From Octopus vulgaris (Eukaryota), in the NCBI GenBank assembly GCA_951406725.2, contig OX597820.1, forward strand, positions 83,204,001-83,268,000: 64,000 nt of DNA. Direction: 5' to 3'. A program made the position numbers and the translations under genes. Positions within the stretch are counted from its first letter, which is position 1, and each line of letters starts with the position of its first letter. This document shows positions 1,459 to 50,800 of the stretch, one piece after another. The notes below the pieces were generated by a model that was not told the DNA's origin, ran no database searches, and was given only the letters and a program-made list of their open reading frames with translations.

Positions 1459-1849
1459 CTCTTTTACTCTTTTACTCTTTTACTTGTTTCAATCATTTGA
1501 TTGCGGCCATGCTTGAGCACCGCATTTAGTCGACCAAATCGACCCCAGGAGTTATTCTTTGTAAGCCCACTACTTATTCTATCGGTCTCATTTGCCGAAC
1601 CACTAGGTGACGGGGGCGTAAACACACCAGAATTGGTTGTCAAGCAATGCTAGTGGGACAAACACACAAACACATACACACACATACATATATATATATA
1701 CATATATACAACAGGCTTCTTTCAGTTTCCGTCTACCAAATCCACTCACAAGGCATTGGTCGGCCAGAGGCTATAGCAGAAGACACTTGTCCAAGATGCC
1801 ATGCAGTGGGACTGGACCCGGAACAATGTGGTTGGTTAGCAAGCTACTT
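1459..1849 (-). mobile_element. tRNA-derived SINE family A (CORE-like), B-box half, body and tail; split by the Tx1 insertion
   Basis: Minus strand: B-box-like GGTCCAGTCCC, CORE-like atcttggacaagtgtcttc, internal (TA)/(TG) tract, tail cggtgctcaagcatggccgcaatcaaatgattgaaacaa(gtaaaaga)3. Homologous copies at about 61985-62400, 62410-62610 and 63125-63430. Confidence 0.85.
1834..1849. repeat. Left target-site duplication of the Tx1 LINE (ggttagcaagctactt)
   Basis: Identical 16-mer at 7249-7264. Confidence 0.95.
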
Positions 1850-2077
1850 CATTTCATATAATTTGCCATTTAGGCATTTACAAAGAGGGGACAAACAAGG
1901 ACAGACAAATATAAAGAGTGAAGTAGCTTAACACAGTTACAATTTTCGAATGAAATTACGGATAAGATTATAAACAATGAATTTTACGAAGGCAATGTTT
2001 AAAAATATTAATGATCATGTCGAAGGACGGACACACAGCCATCCGGGTAGAACCTTTACTTTCTGATCCGGTCACAC

Positions 2078-5000
2078 TTACCTGGTGCCAAACATACCCA
2101 TCTTGTATGCCACAGGCTTCCATCTTTTCACAAACATATCTCGTGACATACACCTCTTCTCCAGCCTGATTTTGCTACTGAGGTGGTAACTAAAAAAGTT
2201 AATCAACCCCTGGCCGGAGACAAAGGTGCCTGTCACTATACCTTTCATACGCGTCTTCCATACTGTTTCTTTCAGTATGGCTACTACACAGAAAAAACAA
2301 GCCTTTCTTTCCCTGTTAAGGAAAGGGGGCGGCACAATCTCGATGATAGACTCAGCTGATAGCTGTACTCTTCCCATCACTGACAACAGTTGTTCAACAA
2401 AAGCTATCAGTCCCGATAACTCCGGACACTCCACGAATGCGTGCAAGACGGTTTCCCTATCCTGCTCACATCGCGGGCATGTCGGCGAGACGGCACTACC
2501 GTGCCTTGACAGCTTGTCGCGAACAGGTAAAGCCGCACGGAAACACTGCCAGGCCAGGGATTTCTGGTAATTATCCAGATACCCCGGCCCGAACGTCCTC
2601 CGGAACAGGTTGACCAACTGATTTTCATCGTAGCCCAGGGCTCCCCCAAGGCGTCTTCGGACTTAATCTCCACTAACCCGCTATAGAAATCCGTGGTGGA
2701 ACTCCTGTTGCCGGCGTTGCCCACCCGAGATAGTAGCTGGAGCGCCTGACGGGACTCCAAATGCCATTCACTCAGTTTAGGTCTCCGCTTGATCCATGCA
2801 CCGATGTCCGTTAGGGATGTTAACTGGGGAAGGTAGAACCGGACGTGCGGTGACCACACCTGCTCTCCATCCAGGTAAAGCCAGAGGTGCCTCAACCTTA
2901 AAGCGAGTTTTCGCATCCTCAGCCAAGGCATCCCTAGCCCACCCTTTAGCGGTTTCTGGCAGCAGACAGAGCGCTTTACAAGTGGTTTTCCTCCTTTCCA
3001 CAAAAATCGGAAAAGGATTCTCTCTAACTTGTTCAGCCACAAATCAGGGCAAGGCACCACGGTCAGACGGTAGGTGATTACTGATGCTATAAACATCTGC
3101 ACCACCTCCACCTTCCCTAGCAGGGATAACGCCCGCCCAGACCAGGTCTGGGTTAGAGCGGTCACCTTGTTGGCCACCTCACTCCAATTTTTCTCAATCT
3201 GGAGGTCTGGCCCGAACCAGACTCCGAGCAGCTTAACAGGACCTTCCGTCCAACGCCCTACGACGTTATTGGACGGCATCGGCTTGCCCCTCCAGGTGCC
3301 GAGTTGCAAACCGACCGACTTGTCCTTGTTAACCTTTGCTCCTGCCACCGCCTCGTAGCTTTTGATGGCCTCTTCCACCACTGGAAGCTGGCCTTCGTCT
3401 GCCACGATGATGGAGGTCATCCGCATACGCCGTAGCTCCTCTTCCACACCATAGATCATGCGGCGCGCCCCCTAGTGCCTCCAACTTCCGCAGCAAAGGC
3501 TCAAGAGCCAATACGTATAGGAGCGAGGACAGGGGACACCCTTGACGAACTGAACGCTCGATCCTGAACGGCTTCGAAAAGGAACCGTTCACCTTGACTA
3601 CAGACTCGATGTCGCTATACAAAGCAGCGATCCAACCTCGAAAGGTCGGGCCTAGGCCAGCCTCTCCGAGGACCGCCGCCAGGTACCGATGGTCGACCCT
3701 ATCAAATGCTTTGGACTGGTCTAAATGTACCAGTGCTCCCCCTGCGCCAGAAAGCTTCCCCACCCTCTCTAAGGAGTAGCGTATAAGGTGGAGATTGTCG
3801 TGGATCGTTCTGCCGGGGATAGCGCACGTTTGCGCTTCCCCGACAAGTTTGTCCACGACCCGCGCCAACCTTTTTGCTAGCACCTTGGCCAGAATCTTTA
3901 ACTCTGTGTTTAACAGAGTTAATGGCCTGAAGTTCCCTATCTCGTCCCCCTTGTTCGGGTCCTTCCTGATCAACGTCACCGCCCCCGGCTCGCAGACTTG
4001 GGAATTCTCCCATTCTGCTGCCAGTTGGCGTAGACGCTAGCCAGCAGGTGCTCGAACAAGTCTGGCATACTTCTATAAAATTCATAGGGCAGACCATCGA
4101 GACCCGGCGACTTCTCCCCGGGGCACTTGCCCAACACCTCGATTACTTCCTCGGCTGTGATTGGCCCTTCACAGCACTCAGCCTCTCGTGTCGAGAGGCG
4201 CGGGCCACCAGACAGGAAGTCCCTAAGGGCCTCACCATGATCCAGCGTCCCGCACCTCCCGAACAACTCGGCGAAGTGTTTGTGAAGTGCCTCACACATC
4301 TCGTCCCGGTTCTTGATCGTGCATCCGTTTTCATCAACAAGAGACCCAATTGTGGCATCGTTTCCACGCTGTGTTTCTATCGTACGGGCCCATCCGGCAA
4401 CATTAATTCCCTCACGGCCCAATGCTCGTACTTTAGCCCGGACTCTACATCCCTCATGTTTGGTTTTGAGGTGACGGTCTAATGCCGTTCTCGCCGCTAA
4501 AATGTGAGATGCAGAGCCCAACCTCAACGCCTCCTCTAAGTTCTTAACTAGTTGCCCTTCTACTCTAGCCCTATCTAGTCTTAGTTGTTTACTAAATCTA
4601 ATGGACTCGAATCGAATGGCTCTTTTGAGGGTGAACCACCACCGGTTATTAACCACGGCTCCGGTTAACGCCCTCTGCACTAACACCTTAATCCGGCTAC
4701 GGTATGCCTCGCGTGTCAAAATAGACTTGTTCAGCTTCCAGTAGCCGGTTCCTATCTTAAGTGTACTATCTATGTCCAGTCTACACGTGACCATTCTATG
4801 GTCAGTATAGGGCACCTGGACGAGCTGTGGACAACTAAAACTAGACTTATCTCTAGTTCTTATCACTATCCTGTCTAGATAAGACTTGAACCTTCCGTCG
4901 CCACTCATCCAGGTCCACTCTGGGACGTTCGGATGGTCAAGTCTGTAACGATCTGCTAGCTGCAACCGCTTAAGCAGATCCACGAGACGTGAGTTCACTT

Positions 5001-5441
5001 TCCTATAGATCGAGCCAACGCTATCGATGTGTACGTCAACGATAGCATTAAAGTCCCCTAATATCACTAAAGTCTTCGACGTCACGAGAAAGCCCTCTAG
5101 GCGCCGATAAAAATCAGTTTGGAAACCTCTAGCACAAGGTGCATAGAGTCCGATCAACCTGAAGGCCTTACTGCTGTATGTCACATCAAGGACGACCAGC
5201 CCACCTTCTGGGTCTACATAGATTGTACTTGTCTGTAGAGCCAAGTCTTTACGGATCAGTACCACTACGCACCCTCGCCCTCCGGTCTGGCCAGGAGACA
5301 TGATTTTCTCGTAGCCAGCTTGGTCTCTGTAGCAACCATCACATGTATATCATGTGATCTGAGGTCGTCGAGGAAACAAGCCTGCTTCCACTTCGAACTC
5401 AGACCACGCACATTTAAACAACCAAGGTTAAGCGAAGCCAT
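2078..5441 (-). pseudogene. Tx1 ORF2 (APE endonuclease, reverse transcriptase, C-terminal CCHC zinc finger), split by about 4 frameshifts
   Basis: ATG at 5441 gives MASLNLGCLNVRGL..ATETKL. EN motifs ILGDFN, SYLDRI, TDH, GYWKLN. RT motifs KSPGLDG, NFRPLTLLN, LDQSKAFDRV, VRQGCPLS, YADD. Zinc finger CPRCEQDRETVLHAFVEC. Frame changes near 5310, 3978, 3415 and 2630 (track pieces 3976-5301, 3329-3979, 2407-3459, 2078-2617). Confidence 0.93.
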
Positions 5442-5458
5442 TACAAAAAGTAAAAGTT

Positions 5459-6859
5459 CTACTTACATTTCGTTGGAGAGGTGGGGGCCGACCTCACCTC
5501 ACGTTTGTGGGCCCCTTCTTTCTCCTCTTTCTTCAGATAGTCCGGCAAGTTCGCGATATGCCGGATGGCGTTTGGGTGTCTGTCTTTTAATTGTTTGAAC
5601 GTTGTTTCCGCAATCCACGCGTGTCTATTTCGATCTTTGTATTTGTTGTACAGTCTTGCTGACTGATGCTGAACCACAATATCGTTTATGTATTTGTCTT
5701 GTGTGTCGAATTCAATTAATATGAGTTCATTTTCTTTTTTGTCTTCTTTTTCTGGGCCAGTTGAGCGGGATTTTTTTTCCGTGTCTGTGGTGTGTCTTTG
5801 TTTTTATTAATTTTTGTAGGGGATGTGGACGGGGATGCTGCACGAATTCTTTTACGAACTGGTGTAAATCCCCCTCTGATACCTCCATGGTATCGTCTGG
5901 GGTAGCAATAGTTTGTTCGGTAGGCGCCGCAGTTTTTAGGAGGTGGGAGGTTTTAATAGTGTAGGGGTTTGTGAGTGCGAGGGCTGGGTTTTTTCTTCAG
6001 TCTGTTTTGGGGTTGGCACCGTAACAGCAGGAGTGGGATTTTTTGTTTTTGTAGGGGTAGGTGTGTTTGCAAGGGTAGGGACTTTTTTATTATCTGAGGG
6101 GCCTGGTGTCTGCGGTTTCTTTTGCTTGTCTGGACAGTCTACACGAATGTGGCCCTTTTTGCCGCAGGCGTAACAGGTGGGTTTTCGGCCTTCGACCTGT
6201 ACCCTGAGGGCTACGTTCTCGCCCACGAGCACCCTCTCAGGAAGGAGCTGCAGGTCCTCCGCTGTTCCTTGAATTAATATATTAATGTTACGCCCGAGCC
6301 AAAATAGAGGGGTAGAGCATGTTACTTCTAGTATTTTTATTTTGTCCGCCCTTTTATATAACAGGGCGGCCACTACCTCTACCGGATCTACTTCCGGCGG
6401 GGCTTCTACAATCCTGACCCGGGACGTCCTGCGTCCCCTATAGCTTGGGAAAAGTACCACCTCCTTGGTTTTTAGGGGGTTCACAGAATGCCCGCGGGCC
6501 ATTTCTTCCCCCGGGAAGCGGACATCCATAGTGCCATATGCCCGTCCCCTGGCGACGTACACGATGTCCTTCCAAATCGGGGACAGGCATTTCTCGATGG
6601 TGCTTTTTTCAAAGTGTTTGAACCTTCTGCTTTGTGGACAGAAAGTTTTAAACACTACGGTCCGCTTCTCGGTCTCCACGATACTGGCGGAGGGTGATAT
6701 TTTAACATCACCACCCTCCTCTTGCATTCTTTTAAATAGCTCGACGAGCTGATTGACATCGATGTCAATGTTCTCGGTAGCCACTGCGGCTACCGCAGAA
6801 CATTTTTTAACATTGCTCTCCTCGAGAGCACTACTTTCGTGAATAATTTCAACAGGCAT
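5459..6859 (-). pseudogene. Tx1 ORF1 (gag-like nucleic-acid-binding protein: RRM-like region, zinc knuckle, Pro/Thr/Lys-rich tail), probably frameshifted after about 5940
   Basis: ORF 5936-6883 (first ATG at 6859) contains CYACGKKGHIRVDC (CX2CX4HX4C). Coding-like sequence continues through ORF 5459-5677 to a stop 17 nt upstream of the ORF2 ATG. Confidence 0.8.
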
Positions 6860-7248
6860 TATTCTGTTGAAATTAGACAACACAAAAATTACGAATATTG
6901 GTTTCCCACAAAACTGGGAAACCTATAGAAAGTTTTTCTTCCAAAGTAGTTCAAAAAAGCAGTTCAAAAATTTCAATTCCCACCCCCATTCGGGGGAGGG
7001 GCACGAAAATAGTCTGGCAGGACTATATATAGTCACGTAAATAAAAAGCCACAATGGCTAACAGTTCAACGGTAAGAAATTATTCAATTATTTCCCGGTA
7101 AAACCGGAGAACAAGACAGTTCAGCAACGTTTAAAGGCAAATTTTCAGTAGTAGGAATTCAACAATTAACAACACAGCAAAACTCTTACCGGGAAGAAAA
7201 CGCGTCCAAACCGTAGTACGGTAAGCAAAGTCACTCTTCTGTCGGTGA

Positions 7249-7286
7249 GGTTAGCAAGCTACTTACCACACAGCCACTCCTGCGCC
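7249..7286 (-). mobile_element. Right TSD plus the 5' (A-box) half of the interrupted SINE family A head
   Basis: Minus strand ggcgcaggagTGGCTGTGTGGTaagtagcttgctaacc joins seamlessly to 1833 (aaccacattgttccgggtccagtccc) once the LINE and one TSD copy are removed. Confidence 0.9.
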
Positions 7287-7292
7287 TATATA

Positions 7293-7353
<61 letters not shown>

Positions 7354-7373
7354 ATATACACATATATACATAC

Positions 7374-7430
<57 letters not shown>

Positions 7431-7444
7431 CATATACATATATA

Positions 7445-7497
<53 letters not shown>

Positions 7498-7507
7498 ATA
7501 TACATAT

Positions 7508-7554
<47 letters not shown>

Positions 7555-7568
7555 CATATACATATATA

Positions 7569-7639
<71 letters not shown>

Positions 7640-7715
7640 ACACATATATATATATACAAATATACATATATACATATGCATATACATACACACACAGGTA
7701 CTCACATACACATAT
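7287..7715. repeat. Compound (TA)n/(TACA) microsatellite with an internal higher-order duplication
   Basis: Directly visible; the interruption pattern at about 7340-7450 recurs at about 7485-7575. Confidence 0.9.
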
Positions 7716-8168
7716 CTATTCCACGGGAAAAGCTGAGTATTTATGTGACCTAAAAAATGTTTGTTTAATTATTAAAACCCATCATTTTTGTCTGGGGTTT
7801 GCAGATACAAAGATGTGGACGGAAGCCTTATTGCAAGTACAGAAGTCATTATCTGAATGTTTCCCTATCTCTCTCTCTCTCTCTCATGGTATATAAATAT
7901 ATGTGCGTGTCTGTGTGTATATGTGTGTGTGTGAAGTATATGTGCAGATATCTTAAGTTGCTTTAATATTCCTTCTCTCGACTCAATTATATGCCCCTAG
8001 GTGCGATTCTGACAAAAGAAACTAAAGGATACGTGAATGACAGATGTATTTAATTTTATAGAATTTGTGAATACATGTCTGACATACAAACATACGTACA
8101 TGCATATATACATACATACATATATACATTCACATATATTTTACATATATAAATACACACACACATAC

Positions 8169-8200
<32 letters not shown>

Positions 8201-9038
8201 TCACACATATATATATATATTGACTTTTAAACATTACTGTAATCTTTAGTTGTGTCTATTTTAAAATTTCTATCTCAAAATAAGTTGCATTTTTCATTTC
8301 TTCTCTTTAATTCCAGTCAAGAAATCTCATTACCCTCCCCAACGACCTTTCAATTTACACATACACATACACATACACTCACATACACACATAATCACAC
8401 ACATCTTCTTGTATGTATATATATATATACATACACACACGTACATATATGTATACATATGTATATTCTTATATACATGGATATATATGTCTATATATAA
8501 GCTTATATATATATACGCATATGATGGTATACATATGCATACACATATAGCCATATATATACATATATATATACACACGCTCCCCCACACACATATATAT
8601 ACATATTTACAGAGAGAGATAGAGAGAGAGAGAGAAGGAGAGAGAGAATGAGAGAGTGGTCTTTGGTGTGGGGAAGGAGTCTTGTTGGTGGGTATGCTAC
8701 GAAGAAATGAAAAATGTAACTATTATTTTGAGGAACAATTTAAAAATTATGGAAAGGAATAGACACAACTAAAGATTAGAGAAATTAAATAACGTCAAAA
8801 ACTATTGGCAGAATAAAGTGGAATGGTGAAAACTATTTTCTAATCATGATAAGAACTTCGTGTGAGAAAAATTGATAGATTCTAAATTAATACAATTGGA
8901 TGAAAATTAGTAACAGATAACGAGAAAGAGACGGTGAAGTACAGATATATTACGATAAAACTCGCAGCTTTAAGAGAGTAATTTATGTCTATATATGCAA
9001 TTATATACTCATATATATTTTTATGCATAGATGCATAC

Positions 9039-9104
<66 letters not shown>

Positions 9105-9809
9105 GTATCTAAATGCAATGATAGCCGATGTGGCACATGCCAATTCATACATACCGGTCAATATATAAACACAAAAACCGGGAAAATATTCACAAACGCG
9201 AATATGAACTGCAAAAGCAGAAATTTAATTTACTGCATCAAATGCCCAAATTGTGAAGAAATATATGTAGGTCAGACGGGAAACGCACTATTAGAACGCT
9301 CACGTGTACACCGGCAACAGATTAGAGACCCAGAGGTCCGTCAGATACCTTTGAGTAACCACCTAGCAACATGTGGTCGGAAAATATATATAATATTTCC
9401 ATTCTACAAATTACACAGCCCAAGTGAAATCGAGAGGAAAATCAGAGAAAAGAATTTTATTGATAAATTCGAACCCAAGCTAAATAAGCAATAATAATAA
9501 TACTTAGAGGTATTACTTCCACTGCTACGACCATGACCACTAACAACAACAACAATACTAAAGGTGATCAAGACGAAGATAGCAGGAAAATTATCTTATT
9601 TAGGGTTAAAAGTTCTATTGCCACCACCATCACCACTAGCAACAATAATTAAGGTGCTGACAATGATGATGATGACAATTGAAATATAAAAATATAAAAA
9701 TCTCTGACAAAGGATATTTACAACATTTCTAAAAATAACCCAACAATTGCTGCTTCGGCCAGGGTCAAGATACAGGACTCTTGACCTGTCCAACAAAGCG
9801 TGATGCCTA

Positions 9810-9926
9810 AACCAATCAGCTCAACCAACCAATCAGCTTAAGTAATTGAGTGATACTACACATTGATTGGTCAGAATACAGTTTGCAAAACCTAGCACTC
9901 TGGAGCCTACCCAGCTGTATTTATAG
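9810..9926 (+). promoter_or_regulatory. Putative Pol II promoter of the Penelope pseudo-LTR
   Basis: CCAAT at 9812 and 9829, inverted ATTGG at 9866, TATA-like TATTTATA at 9918, about 65 nt upstream of the hammerhead fold. Confidence 0.4.
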
Positions 9927-9988
9927 CACAGAATCACTCATCTTGCTACAGTCAAAAATTGTGAAGCATGACTGTCAACACTACTACA

Positions 9989-17658: not shown

Positions 17659-20600
17659 TAACGTACGAAGATACATTCTCAACGCAAAAAAAATCAGAAA
17701 TAGAAATAGAACATCTAAAAGAAAAAATACATCAGGAAAATATAGATAGAAGCCACACAACAATGCCCAATAATATAAACACTGAAACAGTAAAACACGA
17801 AGACAAACGTAACATTCCCAACAAACACGATGTAAACGAAAAACAACAAACCCAGACCGTAAGGATGCATAATAATACACGACAAACAGCAAAACACGAC
17901 AAACAAACATACGAACGTAAAAAAAAGTGACACAAATGTAAAACCTGGAAAGAACGAAGGGGAGTCTAATGATTATGATACTATAAAAAGTAGAATAATC
18001 AAAGAACTGAAAAACACAGACCTCAAGATGGACCACCGACCATACCTCCCAAAAATCAAAATAGACGAAACAACAACATCAATTGTAAACAGCATAAACC
18101 TAGCCGTCACGGAACTAATAGCCACTGAAACAAAAAGCGATATCACTGAGCTAAATGACTTAGTATACGCAGCAGCCACTGCAGCCAGAAAAGAAGCTGG
18201 ATACTCACTCAAACCCATCCAAACAGAAGTACCGCCACCCAAACAAACCCTGTGGATAAATAAAATCCAAAACAAAATACAAAAACTGAGAAAAGATTTG
18301 TCGAGTTTTAATGAAATCAGTAGACAATCAACGCTACTGAGCAACAAAAAGAAAACAAAGATACTCCGCAAATACAACATCACAGAAAAACATTTACCTG
18401 AGATAAAAGAAAACTAAAGCAAGATATCCTTGCCAAAGCACAAAGGATCCGCCGGTACGAGAAACGCCAGCGCTTCTTTGAACAAAATAAGTTCAACTCC
18501 AAGACCAAAAAGTTCTACCAAGAATTTGGCAAAAATAAAATAGAAATCACTGCAGCACCAACGGCAGGGGAAGTGGAAGAATTCTGGAGAGAAATATGGT
18601 CGGCGAACGAACAACCAAAAAACGGAGTATTAAAACAACAAACTCAGCATCTCAGCAACTTTGGACCCCATAACAACTGAAGAGGTCACTGCAAAGACTA
18701 AGCAACTGGAAGGCACCTGGGCATGACAAAATCCCCAACTTCTGGTTGAAATATCTAACAGGAATGCACAAAAAGCTGGCTGAAAACTTTAACAACATAC
18801 TAGCAGAGCCAGAGACAATGCCTGAATGGCTCACGAAGGGGAAAAACCATCTTAATTCCCAAATCAAAGGAGACAGCAAAACCAGAATGCTACCAACCAA
18901 TAACCCGTCTCCCTACAATGTACAAGGCATTTACTGCAGTGATATCGCAAAGGTTGAACAAGCACCTGGACGAAAACAACCTGTTTCCAGAAGAGCAGAA
19001 AGGATGCCGCAAAGGCTCATATGGCTGTAAAGATCAACTAATGATTAATAAAGCCATAACTGAAGAAGGCCACAGAAAGAAGAAAGGCCTCAGTATGGCC
19101 TGGATCGACTACAAAAAGGCGTTTGATAGCACCCCCCACACATGGATCCTCGAAACACTAGCCATTAACAAAGTAGCACCAACAATTATGAAATTTATAG
19201 GACACACTATGAATAAATGGCAAACAGTGCCACAGCTCCAAACAAAAGAGGGACTCATGAAAACCAAAGCCATCCCCATTAGAAGAGGAATATTCCAGGG
19301 AGACACGCTCTCTCCACTCCTTTTCTGATTGGCACTGTCACCTCAATCTGATATGCTAAATAGAACTGGATGCGGATATAAATGTTACGTTAAAACGATC
19401 AGCCACATTTTATATATGGATGACCTAAAACTATACGCTGCAAATGACAAACAGCTGGAAACACTATTAAAGACAGTTCATGGATTTACCAAAGAAAGAG
19501 ATATGAAATTTGGATTAGAAAAATGCGCCAAAGTAACCCTGAAAAGAGGAAAACTAGTTAAGAGTAGCAACATCATACTAGATAAAACCAATGAAATAAA
19601 AGAATTAGACCAAAGCCAAACTTAAAAATACTTAGGAAACCATGAACCAGATAAGACACAACACACACAAATGAAAGAGAAAATAAAAAAAATATATTAT
19701 AGACGAGTTACATCAATACTAAAAACAGAGCTCAATGCTAAAAACAAGATAATAGGTATTAACACTTTAGCTCTCCCAGTTATAAGTTACAGCTACAATA
19801 TCCTTAACTGGACACTAAATGAACTGATCAAAATAGATAGGAAAACAAGAAAAATAATGACAGGACCTAGGGTGCATCACCCAAAATCTGACATAAAAAG
19901 ACTATATATACAACGTATAGAAGGTGGTAGAGGCCTTATACAGCTGGAAAACTACTATAAAATAACCACCATAGGACTGCAAAAATATCTACTTCAGAAG
20001 GAAGGAAAACCGATACAAATAGCGGCAAAACACAAGCAAAACAAAAAACTGTTCTCAGTATTTAAGGAAGCTGACAAATACAAACAAGAAATCATACCAC
20101 CTAACAAATATGAAGAAGAAGAAGATGAAGAAACAACGAAAGCTATAAAACAAATAAAATCCAAACTAAATCTAGAACAGCAAAGAACCATGATAAAACG
20201 ATGGCAAGAAAAGCCCCTTCATGGTAAATACTGGACTAAACTAAATGCAAAAGAAATAGACAAAGAAATATCCCAGCAATGGTTGAGAAGCTCAGGACTC
20301 AAAGCAGAGACAGAGGGATTTTTAATTGCAGCACAAGACCAAAGCCTCCCCACCAGAAATTACCAAAAACATGTAATGAAAAGAAATATAACAAGTAACT
20401 GCAGAATATGTGGAGATGGACAAGAAACAATAAATCATATTATCTCTGGCTGCCCAGTCCTGGCTAAGAAGGAATATATTCACAGACATGACAGAGTTGG
20501 AACCTACATACACTGGAAGCTATGCCAACATTATGGAATAACAACAGAAAAAAGATGGTATAGGCACACACCAGAAAAGGTCACAGAAAACGAGAAAGCA

Positions 20601-20940
20601 ACGTGTCTCTAAAAGAAATGGAGAAACTTTCAAAATACAAAGACCTGGAAATAGAGGTAACCAGAATGTGGAATCTAAAAACAGAAACAATCACTATCAT
20701 AGTAGGTGCATTAGGCATGATGAAAAAAATATTCAGACAAATACATAACAAAAACACCAGGACTTACAAACACATATAACATACAGAAAATTGCACTACT
20801 AGGCACTACACACATCCTACGCAGAACACTTTCCATACAATAACCATCAGAGTATCACAACAAATCACAGCACATACCCAAGGCACACAGAGCTGCGCTC
20901 GGTAGTGACGTGAAAGCACGCTATAAAAATAAAACTACTA
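17659..20940 (+). mobile_element. R4/Dong-clade RLE-type LINE, near full length, pseudogenised, inserted in (AAT)n
   Basis: WKAPGHDKIPNFWLK, EQKGCRKGSYGCKDQL, WIDYKKAFDS, GIFQGDTLSPLLF, HILYMDDLKLY, CRICGDGQETINHIISGC..RHD, KYKDLEIE..GALG; stop at 20843. (AAT)n on both sides. Confidence 0.92.
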
Positions 20941-30399: not shown

Positions 30400-30790
30400 A
30401 AGTTGCAAATAGAGCCATTTACGATGCCTGTACAGAAACGGACTGAGTGCACTGGCAATAACAAAAGTCAATGATGCGGAAAACCCAAGAACTATCAACA
30501 AATCCGTGCCACAAAACTGGTTCAGACGTTTTAAGGAAGTTTACAACAGCATCGAGGCGAAACCAAGGTCAGAGATATCTACTATTATGGAAGACGATGC
30601 CTTGCTTGAAATGGCAAAAACGCTAATCTTTATGCTCAAAAACTGCAACAGGTATATGATATCTTGAACGCCCACTACCCGATATTAGGCTGTAAAATAC
30701 GCGTATTCCTACATGACAATGCTCCAGCACAAGCTGCCAATGTGACCTTGCACAAACTTGACGGACTGGAACTGCTGTCTCACCGTACCT
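30400..30790 (+). mobile_element. Degraded, internally deleted mariner fragment
   Basis: NWFRRFKE..SIEAKPRS and FLHDNAPA..ANVT..KL..LELLSH. Confidence 0.65.
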
Positions 30791-31250
30791 ACAACATCCA
30801 TCAGACCCAGCCCTAAAGTATTCCAGAACTGACTTGGCAGTTGATAATCAAGCACGCCCAACGCCTCCTTTGGAATATCCTCGTCCGTTATTAACCCTCT
30901 ATAGAACGTCAAAGTGGAACGTTGCATGACTGGGCACTTGTCTAGCTTTACTTGACCCAAGACTGCAGTTGCTCAGCGAATGTTCACAGCAAATGAAAAG
31001 TTACATCAGTAGAACCCGACTCTTTCAAAAAGGTCCAAAAGCAAGGAAGTATACTATTGCGTGTCCTATCAGCACACCGTGAATATCTACCGAGACGGAC
31101 ACTGAAATTTCGAAGTGAATAGGAGCAGTTAAATAATTTGTTTTAAGGAGCGCTGGAGAACACTTTACATGCCAGTCTCTTAAATTGCACTGACCAAGCT
31201 GCGTTCTTATACGCAACTGAGAAATGCTCTATTACGAAGCAGAAAGAACA
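30790..31250 (-). mobile_element. Old Tx1 ORF2 C-terminal remnant
   Basis: STLTFYRGLI..EALG..TLGLGLMD aligns with STTDFYSGLV..DALG..TFGPGYLD of the full-length Tx1. Confidence 0.6.
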
Positions 31251-37000: not shown

Positions 37001-37038
37001 CTTACATTCAGAGATTAGATGGACCTCTGTTTCTATTC

Positions 37039-37117
<79 letters not shown>

Positions 37118-37133
37118 GTTATTACTATTACTA

Positions 37134-37203
<70 letters not shown>

Positions 37204-37205
<2 letters not shown>

Positions 37206-39000
37206 TATGTTTGACTTTTGCTTTATGTCTGTACAAGTTGGCTCCAAGTCTCACCCAGAGACCTCAAGAGACAACAGGTTGGAAGTTCACGTTGTTGTTT
37301 TGCCTAGTGTGCCATATATTTGTTTTTTTATTTGGTGTTGTACTAGTGAATGTCTAATACATAAATAAATAAAAATAAAGTTTGATTTAAATCTTGGGAT
37401 TACATTGAGAGTATTTTGCGTAGGATATGAGCAGTTCCCATGAGCACTATCTTTTTAATTTCTGCCATTTTGGGGTTCCATGGTATCTGAGTTAGGTAGC
37501 AATCAGCCCCTTTCGCTATCATTCCCAGGGCACCTATGACAACAGGTATTGTTTTAGTCTTTAAGTTCCACATTTTGCTGATTTCTATTTCAAGATCTTT
37601 ATATTTGCTCAGTATTTGGTAGGTCTTGACAGAAACATTTATATCGATTGGGACAGTCATCAATGAGGAGGCCTGTTGTTTGTCTGAAGTCTTTCAATAT
37701 GATGTCTGGCCTATTTTCATTTATCTTTCTGTCAGTTTGAATGGTGAAGTTCCAGAGGAGTGAGATGTAGTCATTTTCAAGCACTGGAGGTGGATTGTGT
37801 TCCCACCAGTTTTTTTCATGGGGCAAATCCAGGTTTTTGCAAATTACCCAGTGAATATATTGTGCAGCTCTATCATGCCTGTTGAGGTAATCTGTAGGCG
37901 CTAGAAGACTGCATTTGGAGACAACATGATCAATGGTTTCATTTTGTTGGCGGCATACACGACGTGTTGGGCTACTGCCGTTCTTTAATATGTTGGCCTG
38001 GTAGTTTCTTGTTGGTAGGCATTGATCTTGAGCTGCTATGATAAACCCTTCTGTTTCAGATTTTAATCCAGAGGCCATTAGCTATTGATGGGTCAGGGCT
38101 TTGTCAATATCTGCATTATTCGCTCTCTTTGGGTATTTGCCATAGAGAGCTTTTTCTTGCCATTTATTATTCAGAATATCTAAGGCCGCAGTTTTGGCAC
38201 GGGTTTTCATGCGCCTAGCTTTTTCTGTGCTTGTTTCTTGTATGTCTATCTCTAATTCCGAAATTTGTTGTATTCGGAATTCACTTAGATATTCCTTTGC
38301 CTGTTTTATTACTGAGTATGATGCTTTCTTGTTTTCATGTTTTGAGACAAGTTTTAACATCCAGACTTTTTTCAGGTAGGTGTCTAGGCCAACTGTAGCA
38401 ATCTTCATTGTTATTGCCAGTTGCAAAAGACCACGGCCTCCCTCTTTTCTTGGCAGATAAAGTCGTTCTGTATCTGCCTTAGGGTGGTGCATTCTATGCA
38501 TTGTCAACAATTTCCTTATTTTTCTGTCGAGCTGACATATTTCAGTATTTGACCAGTTAACGATATTGAAACTGTAAGTCACGACTGGTATGGCTAATGC
38601 GTTGATCGCTTCGATCCTGTTTCTTGCATTCAGCTCTGTCTTGAGTATTGCTCTCACTCTTCGATAACATTCTCTTCTGATCCTTTCCTTCATCTCTGAA
38701 TGCCTTATTCCGTTCCCTTCAATTACCCCTAGATACTTGTAGCTCTCCGCTGGGTCTAGTTCTTTTATGACATTCTGCTGGTCAAGGTTAACGTTAGATG
38801 TTTCTGTCATCTTTCCTTTGATAAAGGTAGCTTTTGCACATTTATCGAGGCCGAATTGCATTCGTCACTGAATTGTCGTCACTGAATTGTTTGACTATCG
38901 CTAGTAAGCCATTGAGTTGTTGGTCAATTTTTGCAAAAAGCTTTAAATCATCCATGTAAATGAGATGATTTATATTTTTATCAAACATGTTATACCCGTA
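37204..39000 (-). mobile_element. 5'-truncated R4/Dong LINE (RT C-terminal half, zinc finger, RLE, 3'UTR) in (TTA)n
   Basis: HLIYMDDLKLF, FGLDKCAK, AAQDQCLPTRNY, ETIDHVVSKC..RHD, RPDIILKD..LID, KYKDLEIE, ILRKILSM*. (TTA)n at 37040-37203 and 39001-39161. Confidence 0.92.
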
Positions 39001-39024
39001 TTATTATTATTATTATTATTATTA

Positions 39025-39552
<528 letters not shown>

Positions 39553-41029: not shown

Positions 41030-42029
41030 AATTTGGCATCAATAAATGTGCAAAACTGACTTTATCAAGGCTTACAGGGGACAAGTTACCAAATTAGTTA
41101 AGCAGACGTTGTCGGGTGGGGGGATCGGCAGCAACAGGTGGTGTGCGGCTCTCAAAATTGAGATTAGAGTAATAAAGATAGGGTTTAGCGAAGAAATACG
41201 TTAGGAAATATAGAAAGGGAGGGGGTTAGTAGCTAAACTAGACGAGACTATTTGTGGTGATATTGCAACCGACGTACTAGCAGTGAGAATGACATTAGAC
41301 CAATTCTTCAATGCGAAACTCAAAGGTTGCATTCAGAGCTAAGGCCCATGCTCTAGGAAACGTGGGGGATCAAAGCTGTTCGATGGGAACACGTGTGCCT
41401 CCTCTTCAAATTCATGTAGAGCTGACAGGTTCTATTGGTGAGGCGGTCCATCTGCTGTCAACACCTTCTACGCGGAGAGCTGGGAATGCCGTGGCTAATG
41501 AAGTGCAGACATGAGCTGAGGCTGCTGCATCTCCAGATATTCTGTCTAAACGGTGAACCAGTGTGGTTGCCATTTGTCAAACAGGCCTTTTCCCAGCTCG
41601 TCCCCTTGAGTGAGCTGCAGTCTTGGGTCAACCACTTATCAACTTTTTCAAATTTCATTTGGAAAGGAAGATGAAGGTGGAAAAAGAAGTGCTGCCTCCC
41701 AGTACATTTGCGAAAAGATGGATGAATGTAGCGAAGATAACCCGTATGAGTGAACCTGCTCTAATAATTTGTCTGTAGGCTAGGGAATTTGAGAGGGAGA
41801 ATGGAGCCCTTCCCTGATGACCTCGAAGCGACGAGTGGTTCAGGTTTGGTTGATACCTGAGACAACTCGAGGTGGTTAACTCCTTATTGGGGAACTTTCA
41901 TTGTTATAATCTTTTTGTTTGATATTATTATTATTGTTTTTATTGTGTATTCGTATTTTGTGTAAAATCCCCACTGTCCTTGTCTGCTGTATTGTCCCGT
42001 ATATATCGACCCTAGTGACCAATAAATGA

Positions 42030-42030
<1 letters not shown>
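41030..42030 (+). mobile_element. Internally deleted Tx1 derivative, about 1 kb, RT absent
   Basis: Collinear pieces: AYRGQVTKLVKQTL..W (post-EN), VRRSICCQHLLRGELGMPWL..LRLLHL..GEPVW (post-RT), KMKVEKEVL..FAKRW (C-terminus), and a 3'UTR ending tgtccttgt..gtccc..caataaatgaa before (CTA)n. Confidence 0.75.
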
Positions 42031-42090
<60 letters not shown>

Positions 42091-42122
42091 ATAATAATAA
42101 TAATAATAATGATAATAATAAT

Positions 42123-42158
<36 letters not shown>

Positions 42159-43409: not shown

Positions 43410-43530
43410 CTTTGAACTCAAATTCCGCCGAGTTTGTCTCTGCCTTTCATCCTTGCGGGGTCGATAAATTAAGTATCAGTTGAGCACTGGGGTCGATGTA
43501 ATTTGACCTTCAGCCGAAATTTGAAACAAA
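43410..43530 (+). mobile_element. SINE family B fragment
   Basis: aactcaaattccgccgag..gcctttcatccttgcggggtcgataaattaagtatcagttgagcactggggtcgatgtaat. Confidence 0.8.
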
Positions 43531-43986
43531 TATTTCTGTTTCAATATTTTTGATATAATTATAGATTTTGTTTGTTTAATTCTTAAAATATATTTGTAGG
43601 ACATAGGTTTAAACTGTTCAATTACAGGTAAATCCTGTTTTGCCCTTTCAATATATTTGCTAAATTGACTTTGAAATATTATCTGAGTGCATCAACTAAA
43701 TGACTAATTTTTGTTTTAAACCTAACAGTACAGGTGGATATTATGCTGAGTATATTAATATGCAGTCTAGCCAAATTACATCTGTTTCTATAAATTCTAA
43801 TGGTCAGTAGATTTTCCAAACGAGGAGTAGAATAAAATTCTACTCCCGTGTACAGCGTCCTTATTTTCCCAAACTATCTACATTATTTTAGAGTTTAGAT
43901 TTCAGATAGAGGTGTGTTTTCTGTTAGAGTCATGATTAAAGTTAGTTATTAATCAAATACTTTCAACTCACATTCGTCTCACTGGA

Positions 43987-43989
<3 letters not shown>

Positions 43990-44080
<91 letters not shown>

Positions 44081-44095
44081 TGTGTGCGTGTGTAT
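43990..44095. repeat. (TC)n(TA)n(TG)n microsatellite
   Basis: Directly visible. Confidence 0.95.
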
Positions 44096-44139
44096 CAATA
44101 AATAATAATTGAGCTTTTACTCTTGCTGATCTACTTAAA

Positions 44140-44365
44140 TTGCATTGGGTATCAACAAAGTCGACATTGATCCTTTCGTGGTTGATGAAATAAATATCAG
44201 TTGACGCGCCTCTAATTTCCGGGCTTTTGCATAAAGTCCAGCAGATTATTAAGGAGGCGAGCTGGTTGGACTGTGAGTACGTAGGACAAAATGCTTAACA
44301 AGATTTCTTCTAGCTCTTTATGATCTGAGTTTAATTTTCACGCAGGTCGACTTTGCATTTCTCAT
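44140..44365 (+). mobile_element. Two degraded SINE family B pieces
   Basis: gtcgacattgatcctttcgtggttgatgaaa and a head aaggaggcgagctgg..aaatgcttaac..tctgagtt. Confidence 0.6.
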
Positions 44366-45983
44366 TTCAGCTTCGATAAAATAAGCACGCGTTTTTTGGT
44401 GATTTTCGGGAAGCAATAAATTGGAAAAAAAGTTTCATTAGTCGAATAACAAGCCACATAATCTTTATTCCAGTTGTTTATATTACAAGGACTATTCTGA
44501 CCACCGAGGTTAACGCTGCTTTTTACCCTTCCACAGTCAATAAAATAATGTCCCAATTAAGTAATAAATTCTATGTTTTCAATTAACTTCCTCCCCTTAA
44601 ATCTCAGGTCTTTCGTCTAAAGTGGAAGGTGTAGTTTTATAGTTATTGATTTTGTGGTTGCTTTCTTAGTTTTTGTCTATTGTAGTGCTGCATGATGTTT
44701 GTTTGCTTAAGTTTCCTTTCTCAACCGTTAGTTAGATTTGCTCAACCTTGTATGAAATATGAGGAGTACTGCTTCAATGTTATGTATTTCCTCTCCCTCT
44801 CCCTCTCTCTCTCTTAATTGTTATTTCTGACATGGTAGCAAAAATTTCCTCTAATATTTGTGTGTGGCAGTGGGAGTTGATAACAGAGTTTGTAATTGGA
44901 AATATGAATATTTGTGTACTGGAAACGAAACAATTTCGCAAATAGCAACTACTGTCCTAAAATGAAAACCAAAATCCATAGAGATATCTGTTGTAATCAA
45001 AGGAAGCAGCCAAAAAAAAAAATTGTTGGAGAAATAACAAATGTACAGCTACACGTTGATTCCAACATGATGGCTAAACAATGGAATTGGTACAGCTGTG
45101 CATACATAGAATTATTCATACAAAACCATTTTCTGAGGAATTGGCGAAGAAATACAATTATTTCTGAATGTATTTCCCTCAAGATAACTACAAAAGTTTG
45201 TTGGATATATTTTAAAAATATTCTTACATAATTCATACTACACATAATCGATCTCATGGAAGTTGCTGTTACGTTTTAGTGTCAAATCAGATATGATCAT
45301 GTAGTTGAACTATAACCTACACGCCTTTCCTTGGCGTCGCTTTCTTCCTCTATGTTGCCAGGGTGTGATTTGATGAGGCTTTGTCTCGGTCCCTGGTCAA
45401 ATAACAAACTGAGTCTTCTTAGAGATGAGGCCATATGGAGAGAAATATTTGGACTGGTGCCAACAAATGAACTGATATTGTGTTAACTGTGGACAAAAAA
45501 AAGAAAACAAAACAAAAACAGATAAGGAAAGGAAAGCATGGATATCTTAACATTTATAAAATAAAACAATGACGCTTTTCACCAAGGCTTGTTTATAAAT
45601 ATAGTTGTTTATTTTATTTGGATGTACTTTACAAAAATTAGATGTCAATATTTTCCATAGATACGAACGAATGAGGTACAAAGCAGTACTCTGCTGTAGA
45701 ATTCTTTGCCATAGTTTCATTCAATTTGATTTAAGCAAATGTGCTTGGCGCACTGCGTGTGGTATAAACAGTCAGGTATTGGTTTGCAGCGAGAAAATCA
45801 CTCTATTTGACTTTTTCATCCTTGAAAGTGGTCTTCGATTTTTTTTGTTTTCGTAATAAAAACCTAATAAAAACCAGGGAAACGAAATTTTGGCGAGTGG
45901 TTTTCGAGTTTAGATTTGTAGAACCTTGCGTCATATTTTGCTTCGATAATCGAGGAGCAATATTCTTTCCAAGTTTCCTCATC

Positions 45984-46130
45984 CTTCTTCTTCTTCTTCT
46001 TCTTCTTCTTCTTCTTCTTCTTCTTCTTCTTCTTCTTCTTCTTCTTCTTCTTCTTCTTCTTCTTCTTCTTCTTCTCCTCCTCCTGCTCCCCCTCCTTCTT
46101 CTTATCATTCTTCTTCTCCTCCTCCTGATT
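45984..46130. repeat. (CTT)n microsatellite
   Basis: Directly visible. Confidence 0.95.
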
Positions 46131-47839
46131 CATCTTCTTTTTTGCTTTGTCAACCAATTTTCTTATTTATTTCTTTATTTTCTTTTGTTGCTAAGATATA
46201 CCACTCCCACATTGATGCGTGAAAGGTTAATGTCTTGAAATTTACTGAATCGATTCTTTAACACCAAGGAATTTGTAAACGGTATTTTGCAGAATTGAAA
46301 ATGACAGTATACCGCAAATCCACTATCCAGCATGCAATTTCAACGTTTTCTCTCATCTAAATACTAGATGCAATGCTGTATTCTGCACTCCCATTACCAT
46401 CAATTTAACGACATTCACTTGCTAAATAAAGTAACTTTGTTCCTTCTTCGACAAATCCATATATGCATATACATACATGCAATTACTTATATATACATAC
46501 ACGCATACATGTACTCATGCCCCCCCCATACACACACTAATTTTCTTTTCCAACCTTGATTTTGCTATTTTAGTGTTACAGTGTTTTCTTTCTCAATTTT
46601 TCCAATTATGTACAGGAATGTGCATTTCACTTTCCTTTACATTTATTATAATATCTGGTCAGTGTGCTGCAATTATGTTGCCAATTTGCATTGAAAACTC
46701 ACCGGATATTGTGGTATTTATTTCTATTGACGTATTTTGGTTTACTTTTGCATTATTTTCATCAACGTTGAAACAAATTCAATACAATGCAAACCTCCAG
46801 TTTATCTACCTTCTATGTTTCCGCATCAAGATTTACATTTTCGTTTACTCAGCAATACATCTTAAATTCGTATGTATATTTAAAAAATATATGTATTTAT
46901 CTGTTATTATACGGCTTCACAATGACAAGTAGGTCTATTCACCTATTGCCAGAGAAACCAAGTTTTTTCATCTCACACTTGTTGTTTACACAACAAAACT
47001 TGCTTTCTTTCATTTTTATTTTTAATTATTCTTAACATTGCTGCTATTTCGAGAAATCCTTTTTGTATGCTTAATACTATATGCATGTCTAAATCATTCC
47101 ATTGTGAATTTCACTACAATTATGTGTTACAGTTTTATTATATGTGTTACAGTTTCTACGTTCGGGTTACTTCTACTCCTAAATTTTGATTCTTGTATAA
47201 TTTCTGCATTTAGTGTTACAGATATATTATCATTCTTTGATTCGATACACCAGTCAAGACATATTTTGATATATTTTCATTTATAGGTTTGCCGTAACAA
47301 AGAGTAAGCTTGATACAACAGAGACTAATTTGATAACACATTACCATAGGTTGTGGTGATTCATCGATATCTGTTAGCTGTCCTAAGTTCAGCCTGTGTC
47401 ACTTCTGGTCTTCTCTATGTTCTGTGAACTATATAAATGCTCGTTCATCAGAATGATTTGAAATTGCATCTGAAACCGTTTTCTGCGACTCATCCCATTA
47501 TTACTGTACGCAGATTTGTAGTTATTGAACCACATATTCGGACATTTGATGTGTTGAATCATTTAGCTCTGAATGAGACACAAGGATACATTTTATATAA
47601 TTGGACAAATTCATCGCTATACTGTCGGATATTTCAGAGAGCGAAACAATTTGTTAATTGTAGCCTACATTAAATTTGAAAAATATACAAAGTTGCGCGT
47701 CGGCACAAATACTGGTATAGCTATGCCAGTGAGTGTCTGTCACATGGGTGTGGTTAAGAGCTTCTTTATGTGGCCACGTGGATAAATATTTGATTGTTAT
47801 TTTGAGCAGATTGGCTAACTTCCACAAAGAAACAAAGAA

Positions 47840-48980
47840 TAGCTTAAGGGCCGAAACGTTTATGAGCCCAAAATTCATAACCAAAATAAAGTTTTGTCAA
47901 TATAGTTTCCCTTGCCACCACACCTTTCTTTCATCGGTGCCGCAGTACTTGGTTCACATTAGTGCAAAAGCTTTCATCCTGTTAGTAAAAGAAATCAACA
48001 GCAGATATGATGTCATCAACCCAATCAAGTGTTTTTTTCGTTTCGGGGAACAGATGTAAGTCAGATGTCGCCAATCAGCCGTACAGGTGTGCTGATCAAA
48101 CAGTTCAATGCCGCAGTCTGTACAGCGGCTATTGAAAGCAAAGACTTGTTTGTTGGTGCATCCTCCGTATAAACTAAGACACCTTTTTTCGGTTTTCCTG
48201 TGCTGATAGCCTTTCGTAACTGCCTCATCCACTTTCCCTACAGTTGAATTTGACCTTGCTTGGAGCATGTGAGGAGGTGTGCTTCTATTGCATGGATTGT
48301 AACTTTGTCCGTGGCTGAAAGTGATGAGACTTATACACAGGAAACGTTCAAGAAAAGCAACTGAATATATCTCATTGTCAGATTTTCCCATGATATGATC
48401 GAACTAGGGCGCTTTCGATAAGGCATCAGAAGATGTTGCACCCTCCTTTGTTATGACAAGTTCAATGTGCAGAAAATGCTCAACTCTCTCACGAGATATG
48501 CTAATGATATTGGCTGTTTGATTTATAGTCAATGGTATGCCAGCCACCACCATGTACTGAACACAATCAGTGTTTACCTTGGTGGTGGCACTTGAAGAGA
48601 ATCTAAGCTTTAGATCATCTTCATGATGAAATATCCCCCCTCTCCTAAATTCAGCAATCAGCTTTTGCACTGTTGATAAACTGGAGTATCATCCGTTAAA
48701 GTAGCAACCATGTCAGTATGAATATCAGTGGGCATAAAACACTCTATCTGAAGGTATTAATAACACCAAGATGCCAAATTTTCATGATTTTCAAAAGAAG
48801 TGGCCAGTAGTTCTTTTTGAAGTCCCCTTTAAAAAGTCATATGTCAGTTTACCCGAGAAAGAAAGCAAAAAAAGCAATTCGGTTATTAATAAGAATGGTT
48901 GAAATTAATGCGTGCACATTTCACAGATCTAACATCACTTTTTTATAGTCAGCCTATGAACATTTCAGCCCACTTTCATC
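47840..48980 (-). mobile_element. Highly degraded mariner (irritans-like)
   Basis: ORF 48404-48670 has QKLIAEFRRG..EDD..R.S.ATT..LTINQ.AN...ISRERVEH.LH.EL. Degenerate TIR agcctatgaacatttcagccca at about 48951-48973. Confidence 0.75.
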
Positions 48981-49486
48981 CTAGGAGCTTTGCATGTACT
49001 ATTAGTTAAAGATATGAAGAAAACAAATTGTCAACATTATACTTTATCTTATGATACTCAGCCCTTTTTGAAAATGTAACTTACGTATTTGTTGTGCCTA
49101 GTTTCTTACATCATACGAAGGGATTGTTCCGCATTTCATGAGTTTCAAACATCCTGCCACTGATGTCCTGCCAACACTGTATACTACGCCTTTTTCCAAT
49201 ACATAAAATTCTTCTCCTTTCACTATAGATACACATTTTAAATTTATATTTTCAGATGCGCACATTTCTTTCTATCACTTATACGCTTAAGTACATATAC
49301 GCACATGCGAACACATACAATAAGTGTATGCGTTCCATTTTTCATTTACACAGGTACATAAGCGTAAAAGCATTAAAAGATTTCTTACAATACACCAAGC
49401 GACATAAACAGCATAGATACAGCTACACAAGCACATATATATGCTTATATATATCTATATGCATACATACACACACACACACGCGC

Positions 49487-49547
<61 letters not shown>

Positions 49548-50193
49548 GTATGTATGTATATGTATACAGCACGATGTCTGAATGAGGAAAACGTAAATAA
49601 ATTTGTTAAAAGCTATCCGCAAGGGTTAAAGTATAGGAAGGGGAAAGAAAGAAAACATTTATATTATCCATGTGCGGAAGAAAAGAAAATGAACATATGA
49701 GTCCTGGATGTGTGCATCAGTAAGAAACTTATACGAAATCATGTTACTTTAGATATTTTTCTGAGATACGATGCTGTGTTGATGTGTGCAAAGCTGAACG
49801 TATTACCGTAAGATTGATGAGTTCCGAGAGTAAGTATTTTCCCTGACGCGTGATGTTAGACACAAACATGTTTAACAAAATTAACTGAAAGTTTGTTCGT
49901 TGGGTTGTATTTGTGAAACCACTTTTAAAGAAAATGAAATAATAGATTAAAAACAAGTAATAATATGGCAGACCCTAATCACTGACTGATTTGCGAAAAC
50001 ATAAATTAATGTTCCTTAACGTGCAGGACAGATATCACATCATAGTATACTGTTTAGAAAGCAGAATATGGTGTAATTATATATCATGACACAGACCCTA
50101 CATTATTTAATATATCTCCACCAACACAAATTATTTTTCAATAACTCAGTAGAATTTTGGGTATTTTTGTTTACACAATATTCAGTATTTCTA

Positions 50194-50425
50194 AGGCGGC
50201 AAGCTGGCAGAATCGTTAGCACGCCGGGCGAAATGCTTAGCAGTATTTCGTGTGACGCTACGTTCTGAGTTCAAATTCCGCCGAGGTTGACTTTGCTTTT
50301 CATCCTTTCGGGTTTGATTAAATGAGTACCAGTTACGCACTGGGGTCGAAATAATCGACTTAATCCGTTTGTCTGTCCTTCTTTGCTCCCTCTGTGTTTA
50401 GCCACTTCTGGGTAGTAAAGAAATA
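50194..50425 (+). mobile_element. SINE family B (tRNA head, Meta-like core) with Tx1-type tail, unit 1
   Basis: Head aggcggcaagcTGGCAGAATCG..GAGTTCAAATTCC; core ctttcatcctttcgggtttgattaaatgagtaccag; tail tttgtctgtccttctttgctccctct..aaagaaata. Confidence 0.9.
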
Positions 50426-50431
50426 GGAATA

Positions 50432-50615
50432 GGTATTTCGTCTGCCATTATGTTCTGAGTTCAAATTCCGCCGAGTTCAACTTAGCCTTTCATCCATTCA
50501 GGGTAGATAAATTAAGTACCAGTTACGTACTGGGGTCGATGCAATCGACTTAATCCCTTTGGCTATTCTTGTTTGTCCCTTCTATGTTTAGCCCCTTGTG
50601 AGCAATAAAGAAATA
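50432..50615 (+). mobile_element. SINE family B with Tx1-type tail, unit 2 (starts inside the head)
   Basis: Begins ggtatttcgtctgcc; ends gccccttgtgagcaataaagaaata. Confidence 0.88.
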
Positions 50616-50800
50616 AGAATCATTAGCACCTCGGGCGACAATGCTTAGCGGTATTCCGTCTGCCTTTACATTCTGAGTGCTAATTCCTCCGAGGTTCACT
50701 TTACCTTTCATCCTATCGGGGTCGATAGATTAAGTATCTTTTGCGTACTAGAGTTGATCTAATCGACTGGACCCCTCCCCCAACATTTCGAATAGAAAAT
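50616..50800 (+). mobile_element. SINE family B with alternative tail, unit 3 (starts at head position about 16)
   Basis: Begins agaatcattagcacc; tail gactggacccctcccccaacatttcg. Confidence 0.85.

Follow-up and report, generated by a model that had tools for sequence, protein, structure and literature searches.

Long interspersed nuclear elements (LINEs) of the Tx1 clade have published targets that comprise, in the accessible parts of the literature consulted (PMC4494074, PMC13282606, PMC4758252, PMC5786205, PMC10702118, PMC11481361, PMC8869645, PMC3706591, PMC7265360, PMC5203782), Tx1D, Mariner, long terminal repeat (LTR) and Harbinger elements, U2, U5, 5S, satellites, microsatellites and a transfer RNA (tRNA) spacer. 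In crocodilians and Xenopus, piggyBac, Mariner, LTR and Harbinger elements are targeted, and the criterion for target specificity is one repeat type in >20% of the flanks (available text of PMC4494074). The targeting of other transposons by Tx1 elements has thus already been published, and there is strong support for the head of a short interspersed nuclear element (SINE) as a new aspect; in the accessible text of the literature searched, no SINE was found as a Tx1 target, and Repbase reports or supplements may already describe such families. The octopus repeat annotation reports 13 recently active L1-Tx1 families, and the available part of its text does not contain the word 'target'. Here, we describe a stretch of 64,000 nucleotides (nt) from Octopus vulgaris (assembly GCA_951406725.2, contig OX597820.1, positions 83,204,001 to 83,268,000, in our numbering G000:C7:83204001-83268000; hereafter the window), in which a Tx1-like LINE is inserted into the head of one SINE (SINE A) and a second SINE (SINE B) forms a trimer. 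An initial annotation of this stretch had noted three Tx1-type 3′ ends running into SINE heads. All three junctions are present in the sequence, with slight corrections for the two within SINE B: the tail ending at 50615 enters the head at position 17, not about 16, and the tail ending at 50425 is followed by 6 extra nt and then by head position 50, not about 48 (head numbering begins at window position 50193).

The window LINE is strictly site-specific for the SINE A head, inserts in one orientation, and shares this behavior with its whole lineage, which is strongly supported by the genomic 3′ flanks. In the window, the LINE 3′ end joins the SINE A sequence aagtagcttgctaacc, and the identical 16 nt recur at the 5′ end of the LINE behind the SINE A head (Table 1). 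Genome-wide searches covered the 2.8-Gb assembly with its 227 contigs; pattern searches list the first 100 places by coordinate, counts on these listings were made by eye, and L-numbers (e.g., L073) denote genome loci that were cut out for study. The last 24 nt of the LINE have 111 exact matches, 107 of which were matched together with flank, and 91 of the 100 listed continue into SINE A at one base. Another four reach the target core and then other sequence, which in three cases is the 5′ end of another element, and one lies between an upstream SINE A head and a downstream SINE tail in inverted orientation. Four ends are off target, two of them still beginning with AAGTAG. The four of the 111 ends that fall outside the flank matches are two tandem copies, one copy stacked on an element with open reading frame 1 (ORF1) only, and one that starts with the target core. 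With exact SINE A heads numbering 91,753, an insertion would land within 1 nt of that base by chance with a probability of ~5e-5. Searched with the 3′ 200 nt of the LINE, the genome yields 30 best copies that all end at the target core, with 27 leading into the SINE A body (simple-repeat middle and tail), two into the next LINE copy and one into another element. The classification of genomic 3′ flanks that the initial annotation had called for therefore revealed both SINE head enrichment and orientation bias, in line with its proposal of a Tx1-like lineage that targets a SINE head in one orientation.

The 28 on-target loci that we compared have 28 distinct 5′ flanks; a SINE A head lies upstream in 24 of them (20 full-length, 4 truncated), the 3′ end of another element in three, and neither in one. 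5′-truncated LINE copies thus occur at the same SINE A site, where their duplications range from 0 to 16 nt. That a LINE without target specificity was amplified as a unit together with its SINE has next to no probability: junctions with uniform SINE A flank and the excess of one SINE A subfamily would agree with it, but the host SINEs vary in subfamily and in private variants, the different flanks together with the upstream heads exclude the amplification of a single LINE-SINE composite, and truncated copies that retain the head upstream, many unrelated 3′ ends at the same base and tandem stacks of different elements refute it altogether.

The site is shared, as 580 exact junctions exist genome-wide with many different 3′ ends from many families among the 100 listed, and it is sparsely occupied (<1% by exact-match counts, 580 vs 91,753). 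Among the loci examined, all 50 occupied sites carry the AAGTAG variant vs 33 of 41 empty ones. Insertions of the window family are enriched in one SINE A subfamily (30/50 occupied vs 9/41 empty, p=3e-4), and two further subfamily markers 40-60 nt away agree (p=0.01 and 0.05). Target subfamilies are split 15:8 at full-length and 2:6 at truncated LINE copies (by eye, p=0.10). At eight loci, full-length copies keep the 5′ leader of the preferred subfamily although the downstream target is the other variant, which means that target duplication alone does not account for the 16 nt repeated on both sides of the LINE; the leader variant would travel with the LINE RNA. In L074, the upstream target copy reads AAGAAG and the downstream one AAGTAG, a single case fitting target letters carried by the RNA. 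An insertion at this base comes to lie between the A-box-like and the B-box-like motif and would leave the host SINE silent.

Several arrangements at the SINE A site were also observed. ORF1-only elements, some of ~2 kb and presumably of the half-LINE type, and other families with a Tx1-type 3′ end stack head to tail there; such elements lie downstream in L062-L064, 2000 nt downstream of the LINE end in L070, and upstream in L084, L089 and L098. At G000:C9:2664556-2680900 (L017, L018, L072), at least three full LINE copies stand in tandem within one SINE A, with the target core between them.

The LINE family contains intact members. Over the 3′ 1.7 kb compared, the window copy has 98-99% identity with each of 29 further copies. 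It differs by eight insertions or deletions from the intact L073, and an intact ORF2 of 1,133 amino acids (aa) is present in L073, L074 and L096. In L073 ORF2, the Pfam domains Exo_endo_phos, RVT_1 and zf-RVT all score above cut-off, and the zf-CCHC of ORF1 is borderline (E 4e-4, 20.7 bits vs a cut-off of 20.8); a CCHC knuckle of a type I variant in ORF1 is consistent with Tx1 according to the available text of PMC5203782. The best solved relative of the L073 ORF2 is human L1 ORF2p (E 8e-67; R2, 6e-20), which places the reverse transcriptase (RT) nearest to the L1 group. The architecture as a whole fits a provisional Tx1 label; a protein search with the LINE returned 11 unnamed homologs, none with a clade label. 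Sequence contigs from four runs with four organism labels span most of the LINE, one of them crossing the 5′ junction, and are uninformative on expression.

SINE B follows a different rule, as it inserts into its own kind. The trimer has a single head, with junctions at head positions 50 and 17. Genome-wide, the SINE B tail motif has 84,389 exact matches, and 57 of the 100 listed tails run into head position 50, 43 into other sequence and none into the SINE A site; unique DNA is thus freely accepted as a target as well. For the CAAT variant of the tail (9,648 matches), ~47 of the 100 listed run into position 17 (44 without three duplicated loci), and the heads hit there differ widely in age; two of the 100 lie at the SINE A site, at the AAGAAG variant that the LINE avoids. 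Like the LINE junctions in SINE A, these SINE B junctions exceed chance. Multimers are common: in 264 kb, made up of the window and 20 arbitrary 10-kb stretches, they account for 8 of 13 B-headed elements, against 37 position-50 sites.

The most direct evidence comes from 86 genome-wide matches in which a full head starts just after position 50 of another head. By hand tally, 60 of these have lengths of 35-37, i.e., ~15-nt duplications, and after collapsing tandem rows 52 of ~78 have such a duplication. Of 24 head-in-head loci, 23 of them independent, all have SINE B as the insert, which returns to position 50 in 21 of the 23. At least seven of these loci share a non-consensus variant on both sides (L194, L196, L200, L201, L208, L211 and L213). 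Head-in-head cases with ~15-nt duplications establish that nested insertion at position 50 is real. Self-nesting is thus shown for a subset of arrays and likely holds for many; the proposal that this SINE inserts into its own kind stands, and the head-in-head cases speak against an origin of the arrays mainly by tandem duplication.

Target choice outside SINEs suggests a role for the RNA end. Among 46 SINE B ends examined in unique DNA, 28 show a target duplication, and the targets favor RRTAT in register. Starts with GGT occur only with non-CAAT tails (6/28) and starts with AGA only with CAAT tails (4/28), a split that matches the hot spot of each tail variant and suggests that the SINE B RNA end pairs with the target. 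Pairing between RNA and target has been proposed before, for SART1Bm and R1Bm (available text of PMC7265360). Two further observations concern the sites themselves. CAAT-tailed SINE B also occurs in the SINE A body, at AGAAAC matching the tail end (C1:11646937, C1:21176719 and C1:514525), and head position 50 is the 3′ side of the loop in a predicted 13-bp hairpin (positions 35-63, L133).

How the LINE and SINE B are linked is less straightforward. Both SINEs are dispersed at high copy number and putatively tRNA-derived, with box-like motifs recognized by eye in both heads; ARAGORN found no tRNA in the window and Rfam none in three SINE B loci. An exact 26-nt stretch is common to the SINE B tail and the 3′ end of the window LINE, and the two agree at 33 of the last 50 nt. 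The distal SINE B tail is matched better (30-33/42) by an older Tx1-like family (L144:632-3877 on the minus strand, and L161-L190; ~60% aa identity; 3,261 candidates), of which 30 copies end in CATATCT-like sequence, mostly (TATC)n, and none in SINE heads. The only LINEs among 98 matches to the proximal tail belong to the window family, the rest being mutated SINE B. L232, considered as a partner LINE of SINE B, was ruled out as a truncated SINE B beside a Tx1 fragment. All three landing sites hold R-G-W-A in register, and this loose core is the most that both systems share.

We consider it probable that two targeting systems overlap here, a LINE lineage that inserts at one base of SINE A, and SINE B, which inserts at positions 17 and 50 of heads of its own superfamily, likely with the help of a different Tx1-like partner. 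The LINE endonuclease would read the SINE A sequence and thereby fix the insertion base; the partner of SINE B would be aided by pairing of the RNA 3′ end with the nicked target; and insertion would proceed through target-primed reverse transcription. At the 5′ end, most nested SINE B would be joined to the target head through homology, so that each array keeps one head, and the arrays would then move as units or expand by unequal exchange. A single lineage for both the LINE and SINE B is disfavored, and the corresponding part of the initial annotation, one lineage with one specificity for both tasks, was not supported, because none of the 100 listed LINE ends lies in a SINE B head and none of the 100 listed SINE B tails lies at the SINE A site. 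The same two absences, the latter extending to the 100 listed of the 580 canonical-site occupants, argue against a single machinery in which the ORF2 protein that targets SINE A would mobilize SINE B as well, the RNA 3′ ends accounting for the different sites. Such a machinery would account for the common 26-nt stretch, for R-G-W-A at all three sites and for the two CAAT tails at the AAGAAG variant, which matches the end of that tail, and SINEU-1 and SINEU-2 likewise have a weaker target preference than their Tx1-Mar partners (available text of PMC4494074); however, the distal 30 nt of the LINE and SINE B tails differ, and the LINE family, with copies ~2% apart, is younger than SINE B, at 4-5% from its consensus, and we judge it improbable. 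A more far-reaching idea, to which we give limited credence, is that the last RNA letters program the target throughout the Tx1 radiation, in that the 3′ end of every element would retain read-through from an ancestral landing site and pair with the nicked strand wherever the sequence matches, with SINE B homing to itself (at 50 or 17 depending on the tail variant) and the LINE lineage acting as a hyperparasite that splits SINE A promoters; if true, self-homing feedback put over half of ~100,000 SINE B tails into nested arrays.

The growth of SINE B arrays can also be sought in a few composite masters and unequal crossover, by which the fixed junctions would be inherited; as the main source of the multimers we regard this as rather unlikely. 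In its favor, most arrays carry one head only, outer duplications enclose whole arrays, L196 has a dimer between both duplication copies, and arrays of the same form in a bivalve were ascribed to unequal recombination (available text of PMC11481361). The heads of B>C arrays are of B type in 12 of 17 vs 4 of 16 in solitary C. Of 62 pairs of adjacent B units, 26 share variants (24% at random), with strong sharing in L057, L101 and L110, and 18 share two or more (18% at random). On the other side stand the head-in-head cases with ~15-nt duplications exactly at position 50 and the composition of the arrays, whose downstream units come from at least three subfamilies (B, C and D) and are older: downstream C and D units have a divergence of 0.088 vs 0.050 in the preceding B unit (n=20, p=0.036), resembling that of solitary C copies (0.104, p=0.30). 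The C parts of 15 arrays differ pairwise by 0.18 and the preceding B units by 0.08 (pairs not independent; tail region included), and several C parts have a solitary C copy as nearest neighbor. In L132, four SINE B units sit within an old SINE of the D type; the flank duplication there measures ~75 nt and the 5′ join falls in the shared core, in agreement with a 5′ end that joins through homology and thereby replaces the target head. SINE B arrays therefore arise via more than one route.

Several points weigh against the reading of two overlapping systems with self-nesting. The tail similarity extends to both LINE families, and the window lineage or an ancestor of it may still be the SINE B partner; a LINE with the exact SINE B tail was absent from the 100 listed of 323 coreless tail matches, which were indel variants and truncated tails. 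Endonuclease recognition and RNA pairing are inseparable from sequence alone. The 86 visible nested junctions are tiny in number beside tens of thousands of position-50 junctions, and L198 and L206 look more like local 65-nt head duplications than insertions. The downstream unit is more diverged in just 11 of 20 pairs, the B-type heads fit head replacement but equally composite masters, and the variant sharing between adjacent B units indicates that some arrays grew in place. The listed places, moreover, were no random draw.

In the trimer, unit 3 is likely the oldest, an older C-tailed SINE that would have been hit at position 17 by a CAAT-tailed SINE B; the TAGT-tailed unit at position 50 would have been added later or have arrived within an incoming dimer. 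Some of the multimers expanded in place or were mobilized as whole blocks, so the trimer may also have had a different history.

Other elements of the window lie outside these systems. A repeat search across the whole window returned simple repeats only. The remnant ending at 42030 is indeed followed by (CTA)n, as initially annotated. A 170-aa frame at 8982-9494 (+) has a GIY-YIG-like motif by eye, presumably as in Penelope-like elements. RT-bearing LINE fragments lie between (TAA)n at 17863-20612 (+) and 37599-38864 (-), and we take them to resemble the R4/Dong type; 37034-37278 and 38991-39235 are 95% alike. Decayed elements at 492-962 (-), 61031-61615 (-) and ~30400-30800 (+) comprise two LINE-like frames and one mariner-like fragment (by eye).

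Table 1 Features of the LINE insertion, the SINE B trimer and a further Tx1-like remnant in the window.
Feature	Position	Strand	Basis or remark
Remainder of host SINE A: B-box-like motif, body, short-repeat tail	1459..1833	-	
Target sequence at the LINE 3′ junction, directly after the SINE A A-box-like motif	1834..1849	-	sequence aagtagcttgctaacc
Full-length Tx1-like LINE, 5,399 nt, frameshifted in the window copy	1850..7248	-	identity to other copies
ORF2 region (APE endonuclease, RT, zf-RVT), broken in the window copy	2078..5441	-	Pfam, comparison with L073
ORF1 region with CCHC knuckle, broken in the window copy	5458..6859	-	467 aa in L073
Target sequence at the LINE 5′ end, composed of target duplication and a leader carried by the element	7249..7264	-	same 16 nt as 1849-1834
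5′ part of the host SINE A head with A-box-like motif	7265..7287	-	motif by eye
Remnant of another Tx1-like family, ends in (CTA)n; outside the SINE-targeting system	41399..42030	+	38-53% aa identity to ORF2
Left flanking repeat of the trimer (outer target duplication)	50177..50192	+	15/16 nt match to 50801-50816
SINE B unit 1 with complete head and the TAGT variant of the Tx1-type tail	50193..50425	+	
6 extra nt, repeat of the tail end	50426..50431	+	slippage at priming likely
SINE B unit 2, begins at head position 50, CAAT tail variant	50432..50615	+	
Unit 3, related SINE, same head from position 17, different (C-type) shortened tail	50616..50800	+	
Right flanking repeat of the trimer (outer target duplication)	50801..50816	+	match to 50177-50192

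The site-specific LINE widens the target range of Tx1 elements from RNA genes, microsatellites and other transposons to the promoter region of a SINE, whose heads may provide a 'safe haven'. Hundreds of insertions and the intact copies L073, L074 and L096 are available for assay, and within one genome, close families differ in their targets (the SINE A head, (TATC)n and (CTA)n), which makes the roles of the endonuclease and of RNA-DNA pairing testable. The SINE B arrays present a sequence-level path from dispersed SINEs to tandem arrays by nesting, for which recombination is the usual explanation, and they affect repeat annotation, as nested events are hidden in single-head arrays.

Among known systems, the closest are other Tx1-clade LINEs that prefer an interspersed repeat, Tx1L in Tx1D of Xenopus and Tx1-Mar, Tx1-8_Crp, Tx1-4_AMi and Tx1-9_AMi of crocodilians. 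In contrast to these, the target here is a SINE head, hit at one base between promoter-box-like motifs with a specificity of ~91%, and many families as well as ORF1-only elements share the site. Strict specificity for a multicopy site is likewise known from Keno (U2), Mutsu (5S ribosomal DNA), Dewa (spacer of a tRNA-Leu array) and Kibi/Koshi (microsatellites) in the accessible text of PMC4494074 and PMC3706591; compared with Keno, Mutsu and Dewa, the octopus target is a dispersed parasite with >90,000 copies and not a functional RNA gene. Dada elements likewise insert in tRNA genes, close to the A box and the anticodon, but they are DNA transposons in real RNA genes, and the available part of that text does not mention SINEs (PMC8869645). 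SINEU resembles SINE B in being a SINE with a target preference, tandem insertions and a Tx1 partner, namely Tx1-Mar (available text of PMC4494074); SINEU shares the target of its partner, whereas SINE B does not use the SINE A site and prefers its own head. Finally, the SINE arrays of Scapharca and the SINE-derived satellites of squamates also have, inside a single outer duplication, one complete head and then units whose heads are truncated, and in the accessible text they concern 3% of SINEs and are ascribed to recombination (PMC11481361, PMC10702118), whereas in Octopus vulgaris over half of the listed SINE B tails are involved, the arrays are of mixed subfamilies, and duplications of the insertion type are present.

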